Sequence record: NC_054902.1
Strand: one strand, 5' to 3'
Source: Enterobacteria phage Aplg8
Length of the DNA: 64,000 nt
Below the pieces are notes generated by a model. The model did no database searches and was not told where the DNA came from. It saw nothing but the letters and a program-made list of their open reading frames with translations. The position numbers and the translations under genes were made by a program. Shown one piece after another: positions 1 to 61,974 of the stretch. How positions within the stretch are numbered: the stretch's first letter is position 1; each line of letters begins with the position of its first letter.

Positions 1-780
1 ATTAATCAGGGAATTACTACGCTAATTACAGCTGGCACACAAAAACTGATAAGAAAATCAGGGGTTAGTAAATATCTTATTGGTGCCATGAGTCAACGTA
101 CAGTTCAAAGTTTATTAGGCTCATTTACAGTTGGTACATATTTAATTGACTTCTTTAACATGGCATATAACTCATCTGGATTGATGATATATTCTGTAAA
201 AATGCCAGAGAATAGATTATCCTATGAAACTGACTGGAACTATAATTCTCCTAATATTCGTATAACTGGAAGAGAATTAGACCCTTTGGTTATTTCATTT
301 AGAATGGATTCAGAAGCTTGTAACTATCGTGCAATGCAAGACTGGGTTAACGCTGTTCAAGACCCAGTAACTGGATTGCGTGCTTTACCGCAAGATGTCG
401 AGGCAGATATTCAGGTCAATCTTCATTCTCGCAATGGATTACCACATACTGCGGTGATGTTCACTGGCTGTATTCCAATATCTGTGAGTGCTCCTGAGTT
501 ATCATATGATGGAGATAACCAAATAACTACATTTGATGTTACTTTCGCTTATAGAGTCATGCAGGCTGGAGCAGTTGATAGACAAGCTGCCCTTGAATGG
601 CTTGAATCTGCTACTATAAATGGTATTCAAAGCGTTCTCGGAAATAGTGGAGGTGTTACTGGACTATCTAATTCGCTTTCACGACTTAGTAGATTAGGGG
701 GAACTGCAGGAAGCATTTCAAATATTAATACTATGACAGGAATTGTCAATTCGCAAAGTAAAATATTAGGAGCAATATAA
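1..780 (+). CDS. 54: Baseplate tail-tube initiator gp54-like protein, 5'-truncated at window edge
   Basis: Reading frame open from nt 1 with no stop before the ATG at 88; plus (late) strand; sits directly upstream of the alt cluster as 54-alt-30 in T4; followed by a terminator hairpin. Identity by synteny only. Confidence 0.5.
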   Translation: MNQGITTLITAGTQKLIRKSGVSKYLIGAMSQRTVQSLLGSFTVGTYLIDFFNMAYNSSGLMIYSVKMPENRLSYETDWNYNSPNIRITGRELDPLVISFRMDSEACNYRAMQDWVNAVQDPVTGLRALPQDVEADIQVNLHSRNGLPHTAVMFTGCIPISVSAPELSYDGDNQITTFDVTFAYRVMQAGAVDRQAALEWLESATINGIQSVLGNSGGVTGLSNSLSRLSRLGGTAGSISNINTMTGIVNSQSKILGAI

Positions 781-784
781 CAAT

Positions 785-815
785 GGGGACCTTTCGGTCC
801 CCCATATTTTTATTT
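785..815 (+). terminator. Rho-independent terminator after gene 54
   Basis: GGGGACC-tttc-GGTCCCC hairpin followed by a T-rich run (catatttttattt). Confidence 0.6.
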
Positions 816-1100
816 ACGGAATGAAATAAAAGCAGCAACTGAAGCAACAGAGGTTTCTTCAATATAAACCTCAATTTTTACCGGAGCTTCTGACTCAAAT
901 TTACCTGTTACTACACCCTGGAAAATGCTTTCAGTCTGTTCTGGCTTTGAAAAATTTTCAGAAGGAAAAATTCCAAACTTTTTATCGGTTCCGAAAATTT
1001 TAATAAATTCATCGTAAACTGCTTCATTAAAAGCATTATCAGCGGGAATAACGCCTTCAACGACGAGTTCTTGACCTAAAAAGCGCAAAGAAGATTTCAT
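810..1100 (-). CDS. Hypothetical protein, 96 aa
   Basis: ORF with GAGG Shine-Dalgarno about 8 nt before the ATG; directly downstream of the copy-A early promoter cassette. Confidence 0.45.
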   Translation of the reverse strand: MKSSLRFLGQELVVEGVIPADNAFNEAVYDEFIKIFGTDKKFGIFPSENFSKPEQTESIFQGVVTGKFESEAPVKIEVYIEETSVASVAAFISFRK

Positions 1101-1108
1101 TTTGTGTT

Positions 1109-1161
1109 CCTCATGTTATGTCAGTAAGACTACTATAACACAACACGAGGGACTTGTAAAC
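1109..1161 (-). promoter_or_regulatory. Early sigma70-type promoter plus leader, copy A of a 53-bp repeat
   Basis: Minus strand reads GTTTAC-N18-TATAGT, then a leader ending in CATGAGG immediately before the ATG at 1100; 52/53 identical to 16389-16441. Confidence 0.5.
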
Positions 1162-3218
1162 TACATTTTGAACTTTTTAGACATTCCGTTGATGTTAACC
1201 AAAGAAGCTAAGATTTGAGAAACTTCGTTTTCCTCTTCTTTTGATTCTTCTACAAGGAATTGATTAAATCCAGCCATTAGACGAACTTCACCAGTTTCCA
1301 TTAGATGGTCGCCATCATATACTGATTCCTCTAATTGTTCAGAAGGAGGAACGATTGTACCTTCGATTAGATACTTGTTATAAGCAGTTTCTTTCATAAA
1401 GTAAGTACTTACTTTATTAATCTTCAGTAAAATTCCACGTGGTAGAATAACTTCAGCTTCTGATGGAAATCCTGATAAATGACCCGGAACGATAACTTTG
1501 ATTCGCTCAGCTCCTTTAATTACCATACCCACGCTAGTTTCAGCATCTTCATTAGCATATGTAGAATGACTACCCATATGCATCAAATCTTCTGCATCAA
1601 CGGAACCTTCTCCTTCACCAGAAAATACTGCTCCGGAATCATCTAAGGCCATATAATTTTTACCATACTCACCAAAGATATTTGGTTTAAGTGATGTCGA
1701 TACGAAGTTCTTGAAATAGAACATTTTATTTTCAATGTTATGACGCAAAGTTTTAAAAGTAACTTCTTGTCCACGGTAAAGTGTAGTTCCTGGAGGAAGA
1801 ACTGAACCTTTAGCGAATGCAGAATCAAGCGTCTCAATATGTTTAATAGCTCGTTCCATATATTCTTCACGGGTAGAATCTGGTTTACCCAAAAGGAACG
1901 AGTTCATTTCAACATATGAATCTGCGCAATAATCTTCAATTACGTCAGATTCAGCCTGAGTTAATCCTTTTGGAGTTACTTCGGTGCTTGCATATTCATA
2001 CGCCTGAGCAGCGGATTCATCAATTAATTTATAAATGCCATTCATGACAAATTGAATAATAGCTGTCTTTTCATCTGGCGTAGCTTTAGAACCTTTAACT
2101 AAATCATTGACAATTTTCTTAATAACATCAAAGCTATTAGAAATATTAATGTCAGCAAGATCGCTTAAAATTTTATCAGTTTTATAATCAAAAAATTCTT
2201 TATTCTTTAAATATTCTTGAGAACTTTGATATGTTATATCGCTCTGCAACTTGATAGATGGATCACGTAAACGTGCATGGGCTAATGCAATATGATTTCG
2301 GAAGCTTTCTAGTTCATAATCGTTAGATTTAAAACGAGAAGCACTTCTCATACCACCGATAGCTCCTTTGCTGAAGTTTGAACCAATCTGAATAACGCCA
2401 GAGTTCATTGGTCCTTCTGCTTTATATACCGGAACTTTAGATTCAAACTCTTGATATTTCTTAGCAGCGAAGCTATCACCCTGAAGTGAAGCATCAACAG
2501 TAGAATATTGAGCTTGTGCTGCTAATCGACGACTAATTTTAGTTTTCTGAATAACAGCTTGATCCGTACGCTTATCATTTTCTAAAGCAATAGAAGCAGC
2601 AACTGCGACAGCTTTAGGAACAGCATTACCTGTTTTAACGTCTACATAAACATCACCAACCTTTGATTCAACTTTTGTGAATAACTCAGTTGAAATAGGA
2701 GGTACACCTGGAATGTCTTCTAAATTGGCATTTTTACGGTAAACCATAATATATGCATATTTCTTATCATAGTCCCAGATTTCCTTTAAAAGAACATATC
2801 GACCTGCTCCTTTAGTACGTACTAAACGGTCAGCAATAACTTGCATTTGACGAGCTGCGCCATTTGTTTTACTCTTTAGTACGCGGAATAAGCATGCATC
2901 AATTTTATACTGTTTCATTGTTTGAAGAGCAGTATCAAAAACAGCATTAATGACGCCAATTGGATTTCCACCTAAGTTTTTAAGTTTAACTAATGATAAT
3001 TTCTCGTTGACACCTATCATTACGATATGCATCATTTTGTCGCCTGGCTTAACGTTTTTATTCGTATCACCGCCAGAGGTGTATGTACAAAATCTAAATC
3101 CAGGAAGCACGCTTTCTTCACCGGCTTGAATAGCAAAAATTTGAGGTATTTTATGCTTAGGATTTAAGTTAACAACCGGCGCCGAAGCGCCGTCAAATAA
3201 TTCTGTAATAAGTTCCAT
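1161..3218 (-). CDS. Alt-family ADP-ribosyltransferase paralog, 685 aa
   Basis: N-terminal ~240 aa (MELITELFD...KISRR) about 65% identical to the adjacent alt product; C-terminal region retains R-S-E type motifs (YRGQEVTF, FVSTSL, EAEVILPRG); central region diverged. Confidence 0.8.
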   Translation of the reverse strand: MELITELFDGASAPVVNLNPKHKIPQIFAIQAGEESVLPGFRFCTYTSGGDTNKNVKPGDKMMHIVMIGVNEKLSLVKLKNLGGNPIGVINAVFDTALQTMKQYKIDACLFRVLKSKTNGAARQMQVIADRLVRTKGAGRYVLLKEIWDYDKKYAYIMVYRKNANLEDIPGVPPISTELFTKVESKVGDVYVDVKTGNAVPKAVAVAASIALENDKRTDQAVIQKTKISRRLAAQAQYSTVDASLQGDSFAAKKYQEFESKVPVYKAEGPMNSGVIQIGSNFSKGAIGGMRSASRFKSNDYELESFRNHIALAHARLRDPSIKLQSDITYQSSQEYLKNKEFFDYKTDKILSDLADINISNSFDVIKKIVNDLVKGSKATPDEKTAIIQFVMNGIYKLIDESAAQAYEYASTEVTPKGLTQAESDVIEDYCADSYVEMNSFLLGKPDSTREEYMERAIKHIETLDSAFAKGSVLPPGTTLYRGQEVTFKTLRHNIENKMFYFKNFVSTSLKPNIFGEYGKNYMALDDSGAVFSGEGEGSVDAEDLMHMGSHSTYANEDAETSVGMVIKGAERIKVIVPGHLSGFPSEAEVILPRGILLKINKVSTYFMKETAYNKYLIEGTIVPPSEQLEESVYDGDHLMETGEVRLMAGFNQFLVEESKEEENEVSQILASLVNINGMSKKFKM

Positions 3219-3221
3219 GAT

Positions 3222-5318
3222 TTATCCTTGAACGAACTTGTAAGGCATGTTTGTAATATCTATGCAAGACGCAATAATTCCAAGAGATGATTCTACTTTC
3301 TGTTTAACATTTGATGAAACAAATGATGCAAAGTCAACTCTGTCTTCTATTTCAATATCACCTGTCATTGCAACTACTTCGCCAGTTTCCATTAAACGGT
3401 CACCGTCATAAATTACCGATTCGGTGAGTTCTTCGGTGGTCATAACTTCAGCTTGAATGAGTTTTGTATTATTAGACGTGGTTCCGTCATTATTAGAAGC
3501 ATCAGTTATTTTATTAACTTTGACCATCAATCCGCGCGGTAGAATAACTTCGGCTTCTGTTGCTATTCCGAGACTTCCTGGATATACAACATTAACTTTA
3601 TGAGCTCCATCAATTGCCCATCCTATTTGAACTTTAACGTATTCAGGATTTTCTTTATACGCTCTTATTTCGTTTGGATTAATAGTTATTCCTTCTTCAT
3701 TTTTATCAACTGTCAATTCATTACGAGCTTCTGGTTCTAAAAGACCAATACCAGCATGTGTAATTCCAAAACGTCCAAAAATGATAGGAGTTAAAGAAGT
3801 AGATACAAAATTTCTGAAATAGAACACTTTATTTTTAACTAGTGCTTCGTATATAGGAGCAGTCATACTTTGAGCACGATAAACTGTGATGCCTTCCGGT
3901 ATGCGGTCACCATTTTCAAAAGCTGAATCTAAGTTATTTATAGCAGATTCAATTTCTTTTTCACTCATTACATCATATCGTTCTGGATTGTAACGACCTA
4001 AAAGAAGATTATTGATGTCAGTATATCCTGAACCGCAATATTCTCTAATGCCACGCTTTTGTGATGGAGTATATTTAGAACCATCGCGGGCAATAGTAAT
4101 ATCAATCATTGGACCAGCACCAATTCCAGAAAAACTGTAAATCATTCGTTTGAGGAATTTAGTTTTTGCTGCGTTCCAGGAATTTTTAGTTATTTCTTCC
4201 CAGACTTCATCTGGTTGTCCTTTACGATTTTTATTATGATTAGCAAGCCATTTATCTTTATAATCTTCAAAGAATTGATTTACAGCTGCTGCGTATTTCT
4301 CTAAACATTTTATTGAAGTAGTTGGTTCATTTTTAATTGCATTAAAAATTACTTCTTTAATTTTTTCTGAAACTTCACCGACTTGACTCATTGGAAAGAA
4401 TTTATAATCATAGTGAAGTTCATCTGCCGTTCCTTTAGCAATAATTTTTGCTGCCTTTGTTTTAGAAGCTAATGAATTAATTCCAATTTTCATTTCTTCT
4501 GCTTCGGGAATTAAAGGTGCAGTAGCTGGTTTATTAAAATTAGCTGCTGTAGATTCATACTTCTGGAATAATTCACTTTCAAATCTAGAAGATTCCAATG
4601 ACTGACTTTGTGCAATTGCTCTACGGGAAATTTTAACTTTAACGATTACGGCTTGGTCAGAACGTTTATCATTTTCTTGTGCAATAGATGCAGCAATTGC
4701 CTCATTTTTGGTTACTTGAGCTCCAGTATCTTTATTGATATAAACATCACCGACTTTCGATTCAACTTTAGTAAAGAGCTCGGTACTAATTTCCGGAACT
4801 CCTGGAATGTCTTCTAGTGATACATTTTTACGATGTATAAGAATATATGCATACTTTTTATCGTAATCCCAGAGTTCCTTAAGAAGGACGTATCTGCCAC
4901 CTGAACGACTGCGGATGAGTCTATCAGCAATAAGTTGAATTTGTCGAGCTTGACCGGCGGTTTTAGACTTAAGAATACGGAGCATACAGGCATCAATTTT
5001 ATACTGACGCATCGTTTGCATCGCAACAGTAAAAACTGAATTGATGTAATTAATTGGGCTTGGACCGAGACCTTTTAATTTAGCAATTGAACCTTTAGCA
5101 GTTAATGTAAAAGGAACAATATGCATCATTTTATCGCCCATCTTTAAATCGCGATTAGTATCACCTCCAGATGTATAGGTACACAAACGAAAGCCTGGTT
5201 GTTCAATTGCGTCATCAACATGAACTGAAAAAATTTGCGGTATTTTCTTCTTTGGATTTAAGTTTGTAATCGGAAGAGTAGTATCTTCGTCAAATAATTC
5301 TGTAATGAGTTCCATCAT
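3222..5318 (-). CDS. alt: Alt ADP-ribosyltransferase, head-packaged; probable start at the second Met
   Basis: 698-aa ORF starting MMELITELFDEDTTLPI; motifs YRAQSMTA, FVSTSL, EAEVILPRG; T4 Alt is 682 aa (recalled); located next to gene 30 as in T4. Confidence 0.85.
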   Translation of the reverse strand: MMELITELFDEDTTLPITNLNPKKKIPQIFSVHVDDAIEQPGFRLCTYTSGGDTNRDLKMGDKMMHIVPFTLTAKGSIAKLKGLGPSPINYINSVFTVAMQTMRQYKIDACMLRILKSKTAGQARQIQLIADRLIRSRSGGRYVLLKELWDYDKKYAYILIHRKNVSLEDIPGVPEISTELFTKVESKVGDVYINKDTGAQVTKNEAIAASIAQENDKRSDQAVIVKVKISRRAIAQSQSLESSRFESELFQKYESTAANFNKPATAPLIPEAEEMKIGINSLASKTKAAKIIAKGTADELHYDYKFFPMSQVGEVSEKIKEVIFNAIKNEPTTSIKCLEKYAAAVNQFFEDYKDKWLANHNKNRKGQPDEVWEEITKNSWNAAKTKFLKRMIYSFSGIGAGPMIDITIARDGSKYTPSQKRGIREYCGSGYTDINNLLLGRYNPERYDVMSEKEIESAINNLDSAFENGDRIPEGITVYRAQSMTAPIYEALVKNKVFYFRNFVSTSLTPIIFGRFGITHAGIGLLEPEARNELTVDKNEEGITINPNEIRAYKENPEYVKVQIGWAIDGAHKVNVVYPGSLGIATEAEVILPRGLMVKVNKITDASNNDGTTSNNTKLIQAEVMTTEELTESVIYDGDRLMETGEVVAMTGDIEIEDRVDFASFVSSNVKQKVESSLGIIASCIDITNMPYKFVQG

Positions 5319-5338
5319 ATCCTCTCTAGTGTTTATTC

Positions 5339-5346
5339 TATTTATA
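5339..5346 (-). promoter_or_regulatory. T4-type late promoter (TATAAATA) upstream of alt
   Basis: Exact TATAAATA on the minus strand about 20 nt upstream of the alt ATG; preceded by a GGCC-cgaa-GGCC hairpin. Confidence 0.5.
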
Positions 5347-5367
5347 AAATTAAAGGCCCGAAGGCCT

Positions 5368-5556
5368 TTAATAATCTATTGGTAAGAGAGTACGATATAT
5401 TTCAAACTTTGGACCTTTTTCATAGGCATCAAATGTTTCTGTGAATTTATTATAAGCATATGCATCTATAAATTCAATCATAATTTGTGATACAGAAGTA
5501 GAAACATCTCCACCTTCTTTTTGAGCCACGACAATTGTTTCTAAGTAAGCTTTCAT
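5368..5556 (-). CDS. Hypothetical protein, 62 aa
   Basis: ORF whose start overlaps the gene 30 stop (ATGA-type overlap). Confidence 0.4.
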   Translation of the reverse strand: MKAYLETIVVAQKEGGDVSTSVSQIMIEFIDAYAYNKFTETFDAYEKGPKFEIYRTLLPIDY

Positions 5557-7016
5557 AAACCAGTTACCTCATGAAAATCGCCAAATACATCTTCGAACGT
5601 ATTAGCTTTAGTTTTATCTTCACGTAAACGAATCGCAATCGGAAGAAATAATTTAACGTAATCAGTGCGGCCATCAGATTTTAACCAACCGTTGCATTCG
5701 CACTCTAGAATTTTTCCAATATAATAATTTTGGTTTTCCATAATGCGAGTACGGTCAAGTTCATGCGATTTTACACCGGCTTTATCTTTTAAGCCTGAAC
5801 CAGCATTTACTTTAATTTTTCCACACTCTGATTCAAGAATAAATCCACCTGCTTTAGTAGGGTCTTTACGGTGAGGATAAATTCCTACAATTTTTAAATC
5901 AACATCAATTACTTCTTTAAATTTATAGAGATTTTTTGAACGAGCATTTTCCCATAACCCATCAACGTTTTTGAGAATAATACCTTCAAGACCTTGATCA
6001 ATATACTTTTTGTAAATTACCTTAGCTTCATCTAGGTTATTTACTACCTGGTTTTCAATTAAAATTACTTTATCATAGCCTGATGTCATTTGTTCTAGTT
6101 TAGAAAAACGTACATCATATTTTAAACGAAACGCCGGAAGACCGTATATTTCTACCAACGGGACATAATCCCAAACCTGAAACTTCATGCATTGAGCTTC
6201 TTTTTCAGAAATGGTTCCTTTTAAGGATTTATTGGCGATTCCATTAGAAGTAGTACGAGATTCCGCTACTTCGGCGAATTCTTTAGCTTTACTAATTTCA
6301 GGATAAGCATCAAAAAGAAAATCTAGGCCTTCTGGTTCCTTTTTAACTTGCTCATGGTATACCAATTCGCCATCAATTAACACGCCTTCTGGATGAATCT
6401 GGCGGGCTTCAGCAGTCATTTTGATTAACTCTTCCTTAAGAAGATCTAATCCTAGATATTCATTACCAGCTCGCGATAAAAGACGAACATCATCTAATTC
6501 ATCACCTCTAACTTCAGCAAAACATCGAGCTCCATCTGCTTTTAACTGCGCAAAGGCTGGAAATTTGATATTCTTACTAATGCCCTTTTCATCATAAGAA
6601 CTTGCCAGCATTTGAGGTTGTTCAGGAATTAAACCTGGCCAAACTTTGTTTGCAATAGATACTGAAGCACCGCATTCAAGGTCTCGCATCATCACTCGAC
6701 GCAAAACTTCAACATCATCCTTTTTACCATCGGTGATATATCCAGTCAATTCCTCAATTGCAGCATTTCCGGTCAATTTCCGAGTAGCTAACGTGAATTC
6801 AATGAAGTCAAGCATATCGGTAATAGTCAGCATTCCAAAACTCTGGGTAGCAATACCAGGTTTAGGCCATTTCTTGATATAATACTGTAACCCACGAGAA
6901 TAAGTCAGACGATATACCCGTTTAAGCAATTCATTATCTTTATTCTTTTCAAGAATTGCTTGCTTCTGCTTAGTTGATCCAATAGATGCTATTTCATTCA
7001 GAATTTTAAGAATCAT
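5553..7016 (-). CDS. 30: ATP-dependent DNA ligase
   Basis: 487 aa, same length as T4 gp30; start MILKILNEIASIGSTKQKQ; adenylation motif KADGAR. Confidence 0.95.
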   Translation of the reverse strand: MILKILNEIASIGSTKQKQAILEKNKDNELLKRVYRLTYSRGLQYYIKKWPKPGIATQSFGMLTITDMLDFIEFTLATRKLTGNAAIEELTGYITDGKKDDVEVLRRVMMRDLECGASVSIANKVWPGLIPEQPQMLASSYDEKGISKNIKFPAFAQLKADGARCFAEVRGDELDDVRLLSRAGNEYLGLDLLKEELIKMTAEARQIHPEGVLIDGELVYHEQVKKEPEGLDFLFDAYPEISKAKEFAEVAESRTTSNGIANKSLKGTISEKEAQCMKFQVWDYVPLVEIYGLPAFRLKYDVRFSKLEQMTSGYDKVILIENQVVNNLDEAKVIYKKYIDQGLEGIILKNVDGLWENARSKNLYKFKEVIDVDLKIVGIYPHRKDPTKAGGFILESECGKIKVNAGSGLKDKAGVKSHELDRTRIMENQNYYIGKILECECNGWLKSDGRTDYVKLFLPIAIRLREDKTKANTFEDVFGDFHEVTGL

Positions 7017-7282
7017 TGCTCATCCTTCAAAGTTTGGTTTACAGCTCTATTATAAATCAATTCATCATTAAGCTCAGGCAAAGACTTATGATATGTAGTT
7101 CTAACTTTATTTCCTTGCATCCAGTGCTTGACGTAAATGAAACCTTGCTCTACACATTTTTTAAAAATTCGTTCGTCTTTTTGAGCTCGGAATTCTGGAT
7201 TGCATCTAAAAAATTGATTTACGTGACCGTAATCACGTGTAGTATTACCTTCATTTTCATAAATAGTGTGAACGACAAACAT
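7013..7282 (-). CDS. Hypothetical protein, 89 aa (30.1 position)
   Basis: ORF tightly packed after gene 30. Confidence 0.5.
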   Translation of the reverse strand: MFVVHTIYENEGNTTRDYGHVNQFFRCNPEFRAQKDERIFKKCVEQGFIYVKHWMQGNKVRTTYHKSLPELNDELIYNRAVNQTLKDEQ

Positions 7283-8118
7283 TAGAATGCTCCTTGGAAA
7301 ATATTATCACCACCAGTAGGTCTATTATACAAATACTCTATGCCACCAGGTTTAATATAGTTCCATGTCTGAAAAGGATGCGTCTGATATGGATGATATA
7401 GATTATAAGGATTAAATCCAGGAGTTCTCCAGGTAGTGTTCCAAGGAAAAGAATCGTTTTTAATCATCTTCTCAATTACATCTTTTATAACTTTTTCACT
7501 ATCAAAACTTTCTTTATTTTCCTTCGATGGAAAAAGCTTATTCTCTACATCATTCCATGTATAAACTCGCTGTGCAGTTTTTGGAATACTGTCACGCTCC
7601 CCTCGAGCCATCCAATAAACAGGAACATTTAATATTTCACTCGCGTGATCGCAATGGTGAGCGAGATCGTCAATATAACAAATTACGTTATATTTCTCTT
7701 TTGCCTTTTTGAACAACTCTTCTTTTGAAGAATCATGACCACACATCAATACTTCTGAGAAGGCACCAGGAAAAAGAGCATTCAAATTAAATTGACGATT
7801 CAGCAGAGCGTCAATAGAATCACCCAATGCTGTAACAGCTACAAAATTATAATCTTCTTTTAATTTGTTAATTACACACAGAGCATCTTTATATGGAGAC
7901 AAGTAACGAATAAAATCCGAACGATTGTATTTTTCAATTAGCTTAACGCCAAGTTCTTCATCACAGTTAAAGAGTTTACCTGGAGAAATAAATTTTTCGT
8001 CCTGAATCATTTTTAAAATATGTTCTAATGGAAGATTATATTTTTGGGCAAAATAAGGAAGACCTGATTGCCAGCTTAAACATACACCATCAATATCAGT
8101 TAAAATAGTAGGCTTCAT
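7282..8118 (-). CDS. HAD-superfamily hydrolase-like protein, 278 aa (30.2 position)
   Basis: N-terminal ILTDIDGV resembles HAD motif I (DxDG); later YIDDLAHH acidic motif. Confidence 0.5.
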   Translation of the reverse strand: MKPTILTDIDGVCLSWQSGLPYFAQKYNLPLEHILKMIQDEKFISPGKLFNCDEELGVKLIEKYNRSDFIRYLSPYKDALCVINKLKEDYNFVAVTALGDSIDALLNRQFNLNALFPGAFSEVLMCGHDSSKEELFKKAKEKYNVICYIDDLAHHCDHASEILNVPVYWMARGERDSIPKTAQRVYTWNDVENKLFPSKENKESFDSEKVIKDVIEKMIKNDSFPWNTTWRTPGFNPYNLYHPYQTHPFQTWNYIKPGGIEYLYNRPTGGDNIFQGAF

Positions 8119-60751: not shown

Positions 60752-61354
60752 TTATAGATTAAATCCTTCAAAATCAAGAGTATAGATAGTGTATGTTGAA
60801 TACTTTTTGTACTCATATCTATCTGCAATTTTAAATACACTTCCAGCTGGTATCATTACTTCTTGTTCATCTGAAACTAATTCCATATTACGATAACGAT
60901 GGCTATCCGGAAACTTAAAGTTTGGATTGTATTCTTTACAGCGTAGAGCTTTTATAGCATACTCCTGGAAATTGAATACCATAGGAGCTTTGAATTCAAA
61001 AATAACTTGTGTGTTGTATTCTAATCCAGAAGCAAAATGTAGAGCTATATTTTTATCATATGAAGCTGATACTACTTTATCAAATGTAATAATATCAATT
61101 CCTTGATTTAACACCTGCTTAGTCTCAACTGGAACACCTCTCCAAAGAGGTTTATCGTTTGGAACCAAACGAGATTTGATTATTTCATTTAACCAAGTAT
61201 GGTCATCTGGCTTATTAGTAATACAATGAATTAAAAGTTCAATTTCAGATAAATTAAACCCTTCAGAAAGTAATTCTTCACGAATAGAAGCACGCACCGA
61301 TGCATCCATTGATTTTATTTTAAAATCTTTTAGTTGCATTACTGAGTATTTCAT
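60752..61354 (-). CDS. modA: ADP-ribosyltransferase ModA
   Basis: 200 aa as T4 ModA; Arg motif LWRGVPVE and catalytic-type EQEVMIPAG. Confidence 0.8.
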   Translation of the reverse strand: MKYSVMQLKDFKIKSMDASVRASIREELLSEGFNLSEIELLIHCITNKPDDHTWLNEIIKSRLVPNDKPLWRGVPVETKQVLNQGIDIITFDKVVSASYDKNIALHFASGLEYNTQVIFEFKAPMVFNFQEYAIKALRCKEYNPNFKFPDSHRYRNMELVSDEQEVMIPAGSVFKIADRYEYKKYSTYTIYTLDFEGFNL

Positions 61355-61974
61355 TCAACTACCTCAATATCATAAACTTTAAATGTTCCAAATGAATCGT
61401 GTAATTTTTCTTTTGAAATAGAAGTTATTTTATACTTTCCAATTGGAATCATCCATTCTTGTTCATGTGCAATCATCATTAAGTTATCAGTACGTTCTGA
61501 ATCTAATCCATCAGTATCTTCATATGTATACTTAAACTCAGTATTAGGAGAAGAAAGTATAATATCGCTGATATGGTCAGAGTAATTAAAAGCTTTATCC
61601 GTTTTTAAGCGAAGTACTATTTCAGTGAAATATTCAGCATAAGAAAAAGAACACGCTGTATGCAAACTAGTAGTAAATGAATCTACTCTGTTCGTTGAAA
61701 ACACTTCTCCAACTTGTAAATCTTTAATGAGTTCTTTTGTCGATTTTGATATACCACGATATAGCTGATACGGCGATTTAGTTAAATGCTTTTTAACGAT
61801 TTTATTCAACTGTTGGTGAAGAGCTTCATTCTTTTTGGCTTCCATACATTGCCAAAGAACTGACTGTTCAAAGTCAGTAAATTTTTCACAGACCTTTTTA
61901 TACATATCATATTGAAAATCAACACTTTCAGCTTTTATAGATAGCTGTTCAACATCTGCAAGATTAATAATCAT
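61351..61974 (-). CDS. modB: ADP-ribosyltransferase ModB
   Basis: 207 aa as T4 ModB; LYRGISKS and EQEWMIPIG motifs; overlaps modA by 4 nt. Confidence 0.8.
   Translation of the reverse strand: MIINLADVEQLSIKAESVDFQYDMYKKVCEKFTDFEQSVLWQCMEAKKNEALHQQLNKIVKKHLTKSPYQLYRGISKSTKELIKDLQVGEVFSTNRVDSFTTSLHTACSFSYAEYFTEIVLRLKTDKAFNYSDHISDIILSSPNTEFKYTYEDTDGLDSERTDNLMMIAHEQEWMIPIGKYKITSISKEKLHDSFGTFKVYDIEVVE

Follow-up and report, generated by a model that had tools for sequence, protein, structure and literature searches.

Alt of phage T4 (gpAlt, NP_049811) is a packaged and injected RNA polymerase ADP-ribosyltransferase. It is a prohead-core protein, present in about 40 copies per head and ejected into the host, and is non-essential (PMC9026906). 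The protease gp21 cuts it at ITE-6 and LTE-619, giving a 68.2-kDa product, and mass spectrometry showed that its first six residues are taken off at ITE-6 (PMC5694885). The mass that we computed for T4 Alt residues 7-619, 68.2 kDa, equals that of the published product. An Alt homologue was also found by mass spectrometry in the virions of a distant Tevenvirinae phage (PMC5384007). ModA and ModB, two further ADP-ribosyltransferases (ARTs) of T4 that belong to the R-S-E clade as Alt does, differ from Alt in being small (about 200 aa), early-expressed and not injected from the head (PMC5512222); they lack its N-domain, central region and propeptides. The R-S-E toxins C3, iota-Ia, CDTa, VIP2 and Vis (PF03496) have the catalytic fold and motifs found in Alt proteins. 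Alt proteins depart from this toxin family in the long variable insertion that follows S-T-S, in phage-specific N-terminal and central regions, in protease-removed propeptides, and in delivery through a phage head instead of a binary toxin pore. Polymorphic toxins and MuF-fused head-packaged effectors join a conserved delivery module to exchangeable effectors (Iyer and Aravind, PMC5512222, PMC9503650). Tandem alt genes have already been noted in print (PMC1524935, PMC13600099).

The window analysed here, 64,000 nucleotides of Enterobacteria phage Aplg8 (NC_054902.1), has two alt genes at the locus occupied by T4 alt, from alt.1/gene 30 to alt.-3/gene 54. As an earlier note on this DNA had claimed, both are full-length, intact Alt-family ART genes in tandem on the minus strand; they lie 3 nt apart, with the stop codon of the upstream gene, altA, at 3222..3224 and the start codon of the downstream gene, altB, at 3216..3218. 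The 685-aa gene does not fill the whole interval between gene 54 and alt, as had been stated, since alt.-3 (810..1100) separates it from gene 54. ModA (60755..61354, minus strand) and ModB (61354..61974, minus strand) are also present, so that the count of four ART enzymes in the window was right. The features of the locus are, in the direction of transcription:

5346..5369, minus strand: GC-rich hairpin AAAGGCC-TTCG-GGCCTTT, then AATTTT, after alt.1; read from the sequence
5339..5346, minus strand: T4-type late promoter box TATAAATA upstream of altA; from pattern search and context
3222..5315, minus strand: altA, upstream Alt-type ADP-ribosyltransferase gene, 697 aa; alternative start one Met earlier (5318)
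5298..5315, minus strand: altA N-terminal propeptide MELITE, gp21 site ITE-6, identical to T4 Alt
4596..5297, minus strand: altA N-terminal domain (residues 7-240), sharing 99% identity with T4 Alt and 67% with altB
3420..4595, minus strand: altA central region and ART domain, residues 241-632, an effector cassette unlike that of T4, motifs VYRAQ, FVSTS, EAE
3935..3942, minus strand: another TATAAATA box, within altA and some 720 nt ahead of altB; from pattern search
3225..3419, minus strand: altA C-terminal propeptide, residues 633-697, after LTE-632, 94% to the T4 Alt propeptide
3225..3229, minus strand: Shine-Dalgarno AAGGA for altB, within the last altA codons, 6 nt before the altB ATG
1161..3218, minus strand: altB, downstream Alt-type ADP-ribosyltransferase gene, 685 aa
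3201..3218, minus strand: altB N-terminal propeptide MELITE, same six residues as in T4 Alt, predicted to be cut at gp21 site ITE-6
2508..3200, minus strand: altB N-terminal domain, residues 7-237, Tevenvirinae_ADPRT domain PF26846, basic (pI 9.7), proposed head-core incorporation module
1974..2507, minus strand: altB central all-helical region, residues 238-415, 15% identity to AltA, helical in the model
1326..1973, minus strand: altB ART catalytic domain, residues 416-631, with R482, S507-T-S509, E587-A-E589 and aromatic F584
1164..1325, minus strand: acidic C-terminal propeptide of altB (residues 632-685), beyond the predicted gp21 site LEE-631

The longer reading of altA (3222..5318, 698 aa) would begin with MMELITE. 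A Shine-Dalgarno sequence, GAGG (5324..5321), lies 5 nt ahead of the second ATG (5315), and the counterparts in RB51, T6 and T2 are annotated at 697 aa; on both grounds the 697-aa protein starting with MELITE is the more likely product.

AltA and AltB are 41% identical over 719 columns (BLASTP, E = 4e-164). Each matches PHROG 802 from end to end and Pfam PF03496 well above its cut-off of 23.4 bits (AltA 129.9 bits; AltB 71.5 bits, spanning residues 416-620). Every R-S-E type motif quoted in the earlier note was located in the pair (LYRGQEVTF/VYRAQSMTA, FVSTSL, EAEVILPRG), and R, S-T-S and E-x-E are kept in both proteins. In a 12-sequence family alignment, R482, S507-T-S509 and E587-x-E589 of AltB were invariant, and residues 6-237 included many invariant columns. 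Identity between the two proteins was 66.7% over the first 240 residues, close to the 65% noted before, 15-25% in alignment columns 241-440, and 33-45% in the ART region (about 35% for the catalytic domains). No homology between the central regions of the AltA and AltB lineages was detected by profile-profile comparison (hhalign probability 0.7%), in line with the near-complete divergence of the middle that had been described.

A full-length AlphaFold model of AltB, built on the shallow 12-sequence alignment, had a pLDDT of 74 and a pTM of 0.60. In it the central region was helical (pLDDT 80-90) and the C-propeptide was of low confidence (pLDDT < 50). The alpha/beta model of the N-domain had a pLDDT of 73-89. 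The N-terminal/central fragment showed weak structural matches to other large phage proteins, a lead only. In a Foldseek search the ART domain matched Vis, C3, CDTa, VIP2 and iota toxin with probability 1.0 (TM 0.55-0.63 when normalised to Vis and C3, which are single-domain targets). Structure prediction, which had been proposed as a check on the 685-aa protein, thus recovered the NAD-binding ART fold. One position just before E-x-E differs between the two types. F584 of AltB, three residues before E587, aligns with a Tyr of CDTa (HMMER alignment), and F or Y stands there in all AltB-type sequences; AltA-type sequences have I, P, Q, N or H, and SP18 alta has W. The role in substrate choice predicted for the residue before E-x-E is derived from C3 and iota toxins.

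The likeness to T4 Alt extends to the five-part architecture, the late promoter, the R-S-E/E-x-E motifs, the two gp21 sites and the C-propeptide. Sites of gp21 type are ITE-6 in AltA and AltB, LTE-632 in AltA and LEE-631 in AltB. After the L-x-E site both proteins have the invariant propeptide S..YDGDxxxETGE...KF; that of AltB, with its YDGDxxxETGE and KF motifs, aligns with the T4 Alt propeptide. Each protein consists of a six-residue propeptide, MELITE, predicted to be cut after Glu6; a basic N-domain (PF26846, about 230 residues), which tracks the phage lineage and probably serves head-core incorporation and/or DNA contact; a variable helical region; an R-S-E ART domain whose E-x-E motif points to arginine specificity; and an acidic C-terminal propeptide predicted to be removed at the L-x-E site. 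PF26846 is precomputed on a 98%-identical AltB orthologue and on a chimeric protein.

AltA itself is a mosaic. It is 70% identical to T4 Alt overall, and the two have only their ends in common: over the first 246 residues and in the C-terminal tail they match at 94-99% (N-domain 99%, C-propeptide 94%), against 17-33% in the central region and 65% in the ART domain. The description of the longer copy as canonical Alt therefore holds for its ends and fails for its middle and ART domain, which, judged by these identities, are a different allele from that of T4. AltB and T4 Alt share 41% identity overall, and their central regions are unrelated. The closest relative of the altA effector cassette was the upstream Alt of Dhakavirus JS10 (ART domain 93-94% and central region 66% at the amino acid level; 79.9% DNA identity over window positions 4635..3379). 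Two paralogues from the same genome resemble each other more in the N-domain (window phage 0.67, JS10 0.65) than orthologues from different genera do (0.45-0.47), and the N-domain tree tracks phage genus. For ART domains this is reversed, with 0.35 within a genome and 0.93 and 0.57 between orthologues. In pairs from other genera, different N-domains are joined to AltA-type and AltB-type effector parts, and these persist as separate orthologue lineages across genera. The alt locus thus resembles polymorphic toxin loci, with a lineage-tracking N-domain and propeptide and with central and ART parts swapped between genera. The likeness to MuF effectors is one of logic, not homology, as the Alt N-domain is PF26846 and not MuF.

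The pair is not new. AltB orthologues of at least 95% identity occur in about 395 phage records, T2, T6, RB51 and RB14 among them, annotated as "alt.-2" or "Alt-like RNA polymerase ADP-ribosyltransferase"; with those of RB51, T6 and T2, the AltB of the window shares 98-99% identity. Locus and tandem layout are the same in RB51 and RB14 ('alt.-2'), T6 ('apparent insertion in alt.-2') and T2, and the window is another member of this group. The same organisation at the same locus is found in Dhakavirus, Gaprivervirus ("alta/altb") and Moonvirus, and annotated pairs include those of SP18 ('alta/altb'), JS10, CF1 and Aeromonas phage 31/44RR (ORF187c); Aeromonas phage 31 has two full-length copies and one shorter ORF. 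Two genes are the majority state of Tequatrovirus, and the arrangement is not unusual. Since each effector type has orthologues in other genera, the duplication is, by this comparison, old.

Against this background T4 is the exception. Its alt.-1 and alt.-2 (NP_049810 and NP_049809) sit where altB sits and, from their alignment, are its frameshifted and deleted remnant. Their PHROGs match AltB residues 1-56 and 62-117. Over the first ~54 AltB codons T4 DNA encodes nearly the same residues (N16T is one of the differences); a frameshift follows, and the sequence runs on to about codon 116. In the T4 record alt.-1/alt.-2 appear as 'a duplication of the first part of gene alt'. Comparison with altB shows instead the remnant of a full-length paralogue. 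T4 lacks window positions ~1181..2870 and lost altB by this ~1.7-kb deletion, between the 9-bp near-repeats CTAAAGAGT and CTAAAAAGT. The same junction was found in 91 T4-like records, also without altB, and split or truncated copies occur in CF1 and in clusters of 415-624 aa; altB is therefore dispensable. The 685-aa gene is thus widely annotated, and T4 itself has only a decayed remnant of it; we found no experiment on, or characterisation of, AltB in the literature searched.

These losses could suggest that the AltB duplicate is decaying, or has lost its catalytic function, and is heading for the T4 state. We regard this as hardly credible, as it is contradicted by the selection analysis. 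Over ten pairs among the window phage, RB51, T6, T2 and G9062, AltB had a dN/dS of 0.027-0.060, comparable to that of AltA (0.028-0.083), and altB is intact at exactly 2058 nt in all five phages. AltB is under strong purifying selection, its catalytic residues are all invariant, and the number of highly similar records also speaks against decay.

Expression signals point to late synthesis. T4 late promoters carry the TATAAATA sequence as their -10 box, and ahead of altA the order is hairpin, late box, Shine-Dalgarno sequence. The hairpin was not flagged by a consensus terminator scan; terminators are annotated at its position in G9062 and NRG-P0074, and it looks like a terminator parting the ligase/alt.1 unit from the alt genes. 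The scan found no terminator-like site between altA and altB. The box inside altA may be an internal late promoter for altB, and is only a candidate because the 8 TATAAATA matches in the whole window are not above the chance mean of 9.2.

By lying downstream of altA, altB is assured of late transcription and nothing more, and virion proteomics for AltB was not found in the literature. AltB might thus be a late cytoplasmic ART, unpackaged and acting in the producing cell, which we consider improbable. The whole head-targeting and processing set is kept (ITE-6, the lineage-tracking N-domain, L-x-E and the invariant C-propeptide), and the N-domain has 0 non-synonymous and 15 synonymous differences between the window phage and RB51. 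Entry of AltB into the prohead is favoured, because these features, at a dN/dS of about 0.05, otherwise lack a reason for conservation.

Both genes are probably functional in this way: late-made arginine mono-ADP-ribosyltransferases of Alt type would be built into the prohead core, have both ends cut off by gp21 and be injected with the DNA, and AltA and AltB would each modify a separate set of host proteins during the first seconds of infection. Packaging and injection are inferred for AltB, as are activity, arginine specificity and separate targets. A redundant second dose, with AltB packaged and directed at the same targets, chiefly Arg265 of RNA polymerase alpha, for extra copies or robustness, seems unlikely, though less so than the readings above. 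Architecture, catalytic residues and the E-x-E motif are common to both proteins, T4 manages without AltB, and T4 Alt is reported to modify many proteins, so that its specificity may be loose (PMC5512222). Such redundancy fits poorly with ART domains only about 35% identical, central regions without detectable homology, and two effector types held as separate lineages across genera. Strong purifying selection on both genes is likewise unexpected for a simple spare copy. The 685-aa protein is a diverged paralogue whose central region differs, and the suggestion that it could have a target of its own stands: different targets are most likely, as the two types differ in their central region, in the long loop that follows S-T-S and, systematically, in the residue at -3 to E-x-E.

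The alt locus of phage Aplg8 (NC_054902.1) holds two long tandem ORFs of the Alt family, both intact and on the minus strand, as the earlier note had claimed. The upstream gene, altA, encodes AltA, and its downstream neighbour, altB, encodes AltB. The pair is flanked on one side by alt.1 and DNA ligase and on the other by alt.-3 and gene 54. ModA and ModB, also claimed in that note, are likewise encoded in the window.

Genes and start signals of the alt locus, with ModA and ModB
88..780, plus strand: gene 54
810..1100: alt.-3
1161..3218, minus strand: altB, 685 aa
3222..5315, minus strand: altA, preferred reading, 697 aa
3222..5318, minus strand: altA, long reading, 698 aa, beginning MMELITE
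5324..5321, minus strand: altA Shine-Dalgarno sequence GAGG, 5 nt before the second ATG
5368..5556, minus strand: alt.1
5553..7016: DNA ligase
60755..61354: ModA
61354..61974: ModB

The shorter reading of altA was preferred because of the position of the GAGG and because RB51, T6 and T2 are annotated with the 697-aa form. In the flanks, alt.1 gave a match (E = 7.5e-29) to PF24647 'Phage blade protein', a Pfam family defined recently, and alt.1 and the ligase stop overlap by 4 nt. A T4 early-type promoter-like site (GTTTACA, 17 nt, TATAGT, with TG) is found at 1132..1160 on the minus strand, between the altB stop and alt.-3. The latter is a DUF5498 protein, and a bidirectional GC-rich terminator hairpin (785..802) separates it from gene 54.

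AltA and AltB are 41% identical over 719 alignment columns (BLASTP, E = 4e-164), with strong regional differences: 66.7% in residues 1-240, 15-25% in alignment columns 241-440 and 33-45% in the catalytic region. PHROG 802, 'Alt-like RNA polymerase ADP-ribosyltransferase', spans AltB 1-685 (E = 6e-256) and AltA 1-696 (E = 3e-272). The ADP-ribosyltransferase (ART) family PF03496 ADPrib_exo_Tox scored 71.5 bits for AltB and 129.9 bits for AltA, both above the curated cut-off of 23.4. Both window proteins have the full-length architecture, a C-terminal ART domain with an N-terminal PF26846 Tevenvirinae_ADPRT domain; the latter was taken from precomputed matches of an AltB orthologue (P0001, 98% identical) and of a metagenomic Alt protein (P0005), and the Pfam run on the window proteins gave no PF26846 match. 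Every catalytic motif quoted in the earlier note was found in the ORFs. In AltB, the catalytic residues are R482 (LYRGQ), S507-T-S509 (FVSTS) and E587-A-E589, and AltA has VYRAQ, FVSTS and EAE. The Arg, S-T-S and E-x-E columns were invariant in a 12-sequence family alignment, and so was the C-terminal motif YDGDxxxETGE...KF. In R-S-E ARTs, the E-x-E motif is a sign of arginine specificity; since both proteins carry it, arginine is the probable ADP-ribosylation target of AltA and AltB.

The AlphaFold2 model of AltB, made from a shallow input alignment (mean pLDDT 74, pTM 0.60), has four parts, from an alpha/beta N-domain through a helical middle and the ART domain to a tail of low confidence (629-685). 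A Foldseek search of the PDB with this model matched exclusively R-S-E ADP-ribosyltransferases (Vis, C3bot, CDTa, Certhrax, VIP2, iota Ia, C2-I), with probability 1.0, E values of 1e-6 to 7e-4 (Vis, C3bot, CDTa, VIP2, iota Ia) and target-normalised TM scores of 0.55-0.63 for the single-domain toxins Vis and C3. These matches place the modelled AltB in the ART fold and contradict one of the refuting cases named in the earlier note, that the 685-aa protein lacks an NAD-binding fold. Searching the PDB by sequence yielded no solved Alt structure; the hits, all weak, linked the ART domain to CDTa, iota and Vis.

In five phages (the window phage, RB51, T6, T2 and G9062), altB has the same length of exactly 2058 nt. 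Pairwise dN/dS values were 0.027-0.060 for altB and equally low for altA (0.028-0.083); between the window phage and T6, altB differs by 65 synonymous and 13 non-synonymous changes. Because of these low values, we rejected the reading of altB as a pseudogene. By their sequences, altA and altB are real, intact and almost certainly functional genes.

The first 8.2 kb of the window share 97-98% identity with phages of Tequatrovirus, for example wV7, RB68, RB51 and RB14, and 392 records each cover at least 80% of this stretch. AltB was found at 95% identity or more in 395 records of the annotated phage collection (tblastn), including T6, T2, RB51, RB14, AR1 and G9062; record counts are inflated, because some phages are present as both GenBank and RefSeq copies. 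The orthologues carry names such as 'alt.-2' and 'Alt-like RNA polymerase ADP-ribosyltransferase', and the T6 gene is labelled 'apparent insertion in alt.-2; also similar to alt'. The locus also holds tandem alt genes in Dhakavirus JS10, in Gaprivervirus SP18 (named alta and altb), in Moonvirus CF1, where the second copy is split, and in Aeromonas phage 31, which has two full-length copies and a shorter upstream ORF. Unlike the window phage, the one Mosigvirus examined has a single copy. Three to five separate Alt-like matches per genome were seen in OR842557 (phage 04086), OK335775 (PSD2002) and AP019521 (KIT01), so the family can expand beyond two copies in some T4-like phages. In the literature, Nolan et al. 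2006 counted among the alt paralogues the T4 ORFs alt.-1 and alt.-2 and, from phage 44RR, a full-length duplicate (PMC1524935). For a Tequatrovirus, a 2026 paper describes 'two paralogous Alt-like proteins sharing 43.29% identity' and suggests that their functions have diverged (PMC13600099). As the pair is common, long annotated in T-even phages and several sister genera, and remarked in print, it is already known as a sequence feature. A literature search for experimental studies of the second paralogue, including virion mass spectrometry, found none, but only passing genomic remarks (PMC1524935, PMC13600099).

T4 itself is the exception. Between its alt and alt.-3 genes there are two small ORFs, named alt.-1 and alt.-2. 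Translated, this interval reads MELITELFDGASAPVVTLNPKHKIPQIFAIQAGEESVLPGFRFCTYTSGGDTNK followed by a frameshift, and MELITELFDGASAPVVTLNPKHKIPQIFAIQAGEESVLPGFRFCTYTSGGDTNK is the N-terminus of AltB, not that of T4 Alt. The PHROGs of T4 alt.-1 and alt.-2 match AltB 1-56 and 62-117, respectively (E = 2e-40 and 3e-38), and match AltA far worse. At the DNA level, the alignment of T4 with the window runs through 2871 and picks up again at 1180; therefore, about 1.7 kb of altB are gone from T4. The deletion junction falls in a 9-bp near-repeat, CTAAAGAGT / CTAAAAAGT (region 4566..4951 of the T4 stretch analysed, L002, NC_000866). A 121-nt probe spanning the T4 junction was contiguous in 91 records, including many T4 stocks and mutants, and matched only as split halves in roughly 400 records. 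Judged from these records, the intact pair is the majority state. The T4 ORFs alt.-1 and alt.-2 are then the remnant of a deletion in a full-length gene, a computational result of modest novelty that goes beyond the existing annotation. In its note, 'duplication of the first part of gene alt', the T4 RefSeq record has this history reversed: the fragment is what is left of a deleted altB.

The earlier note had equated the 698-aa copy with canonical Alt. This holds for the ends of the protein and fails for its central region and ART domain. Compared with T4 Alt, AltA is 97-100% identical in residues 1-246 and 94% identical in the C-propeptide, and only 17-33% in the central region and 65% in the ART domain. 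The upstream Alt of Dhakavirus JS10 has the opposite profile at the amino acid level, with 93-94% identity to AltA in the ART domain, 66% in the central region and only 46-47% in the N-domain. At the DNA level, 4635..3379 of the window is 79.9% identical to JS10 (2593..3849 of the JS10 stretch analysed, L005), and the flanks have about 66% identity or no match. An AltA-type search returned 291 records at least 95% identical to the window type and 215 in the 60-80% band, which holds the T4 type. From the T4-like ends and the JS10-like effector part, at least two alt alleles differing by an internal cassette therefore circulate in Tequatrovirus. In phage G9062, the alt gene is of the T4 type and altB is intact.

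Trees of the separate domains differ: N-domains group broadly by phage lineage, ART domains by paralogue type. Because the ART tree keeps the AltA-type and AltB-type lineages apart across genera, a recent duplication was rejected. Two paralogous N-domains from one genome (identity 0.67 for the window phage, 0.65 for JS10 and 0.64 for a metagenomic pair) resemble each other more than orthologues from different genera do (0.45-0.47). For the ART domain the relation is reversed, with 0.35 within the genome and 0.93 and 0.57 between orthologues. Our reading is that the effector part was duplicated long ago and that, in addition, there was gene conversion or else the N-domain co-adapted to a lineage-specific partner, for which the head core is the simplest candidate. 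The effector part would have been exchanged between genera and the ends would track the phage, a second computational result of modest novelty beyond the annotation.

Two metagenomic proteins (P0005 and P0007) join an AltA/T4-type N-domain to the central region, ART domain and tail of AltB. Their junctions differ, lying near residues 190 and 222. In Logan contig SRR24155011_2765 (65 kb), one of these chimeras, at 6001..8055, is the sole alt gene between alt.1 and alt.-3. The chimeras fit a product of unequal crossing-over between the tandem copies, although a collapse during assembly is another plausible source of such genes.

Two boxes of the T4 late-promoter type were found on the minus strand in and around altA:

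5346..5339, minus strand: T4-type late-promoter box TATAAATA, immediately 5' of altA
3942..3935, minus strand: second TATAAATA box, inside altA, candidate only

Downstream of alt.1, the order is a GC-rich hairpin, the first box, the Shine-Dalgarno sequence and altA. The internal box was set aside as promoter evidence and left as a mere candidate, because the motif is no commoner in the window than in shuffled sequence. The altB start lies 3 nt past the altA stop and has its own AAGGA 6 nt upstream; a terminator scan and the sequence context gave no terminator-like site between the genes. From this arrangement, altB is expected to be co-transcribed late with altA. The pair lies in the gene 30/alt.1 to alt.-3/gene 54 locus behind a late-type promoter, altB by way of the presumed co-transcription.

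About 40 copies of T4 Alt are built into the prohead core, and the protein enters the host by ejection (PMC9026906). The prohead protease gp21 cuts it at ITE-6, removing six residues, and at LTE-619, removing 63 residues, to give a product of 68.2 kDa by mass spectrometry (PMC5694885). In agreement, residues 617-619 of T4 Alt are LTE, and the computed mass of residues 7-619 is 68.2 kDa. In AltA and AltB, gp21 sites can be recognised by sequence at both termini: each begins with MELITE, and the predicted C-terminal sites are LTE-632 in AltA and LEE-631 in AltB; in both proteins an S and then the invariant propeptide come next. Cleavage at these sites would leave mature proteins of 70.1 kDa (AltA) and 69.2 kDa (AltB). 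In the AltB model, the C-propeptide corresponds to the tail of low confidence. The main argument that AltB, too, probably passes through the prohead is that processing sites and propeptides are kept at both ends under strong purifying selection. The propeptides that gp21 would remove (1164..1325 and 3225..3419) hold some of the most conserved residues of the family (YDGDxxxETGE, F..F and KF). Their invariance holds across genera in which ART identity is only about 35%, and this points to an important role of the propeptide, such as targeting, tethering or auto-inhibition.

The two proteins differ in parts where substrates would be recognised. The central helical regions (AltB 238-415 compared with AltA) had no profile-profile similarity (hhalign probability 0.7%). 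In the 12-sequence alignment, the loop from S-T-S to the next conserved strand varied in length and sequence. The residue three positions before E-x-E is Phe or Tyr in every AltB-type sequence, Trp in SP18 alta, and Ile, Pro, Gln, Asn or His in AltA-type sequences. In C3-like and iota-like toxins, this position is part of the substrate-recognising loop, and CDTa has a Tyr aligned with the AltB Phe (HMMER alignment). This systematic difference between the paralogue lineages is a third computational result of modest novelty beyond the annotation. Together, the central region, the loop and the pre-E-x-E residue make it more likely that AltA and AltB have distinct targets. The earlier note's reading of the pair, with AltB as a second ART packaged in the head but differing in its central region, is reasonable, and no other explains the pair better.

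Alt is a textbook case of an enzyme that a phage injects along with its DNA to reprogram the host, and to our knowledge nearly everything known of it derives from T4. In this respect T4 is atypical, as most close relatives, including T2 and T6, keep a second Alt paralogue under selection, with a different predicted substrate-recognition region. Tentatively, and with somewhat less than even confidence, we propose that the alt locus of T-even phages is a two-slot system of injected effectors with swapping cassettes, in which AltB is a second injected ART with a target other than RNA polymerase alpha, lost from T4. A lineage-specific head-incorporation module (N-domain and cleavable C-propeptide) would deliver interchangeable warheads of central region plus ART domain. 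AltB, whose residue before E-x-E is aromatic like that of C3 and iota toxins, could modify a translation or RNA factor, or a component of anti-phage defence. With AltB lost from T4, classical T4 work would have missed an immediate-early host-takeover activity of about four fifths of its relatives. If AltB has its own targets, they would form an unstudied layer of immediate-early host takeover and could help account for phenotypic differences among T-even phages. The pair as a sequence feature is already in the databases and will not surprise a T4 specialist.

Ends that follow the phage and an effector that moves between genera suggest that the N-domain and propeptides could be a general head-delivery scaffold. 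A predicted AltB fragment (1-415) matched Alt homologues in BFVD. It also matched, weakly (E 1e-5 to 1e-3), large uncharacterised proteins of unrelated myoviruses: the Erwinia, Dickeya and Shigella phages phiEa2809, RC-2014 and MK-13, the Vibrio phages VP-1 and Kuja, and Agrobacterium phage Atu_ph07. AltB 1-415 might contain a general head-delivery module that is fused elsewhere to different effectors. One of the weakly matching proteins bears a zeta-toxin domain.
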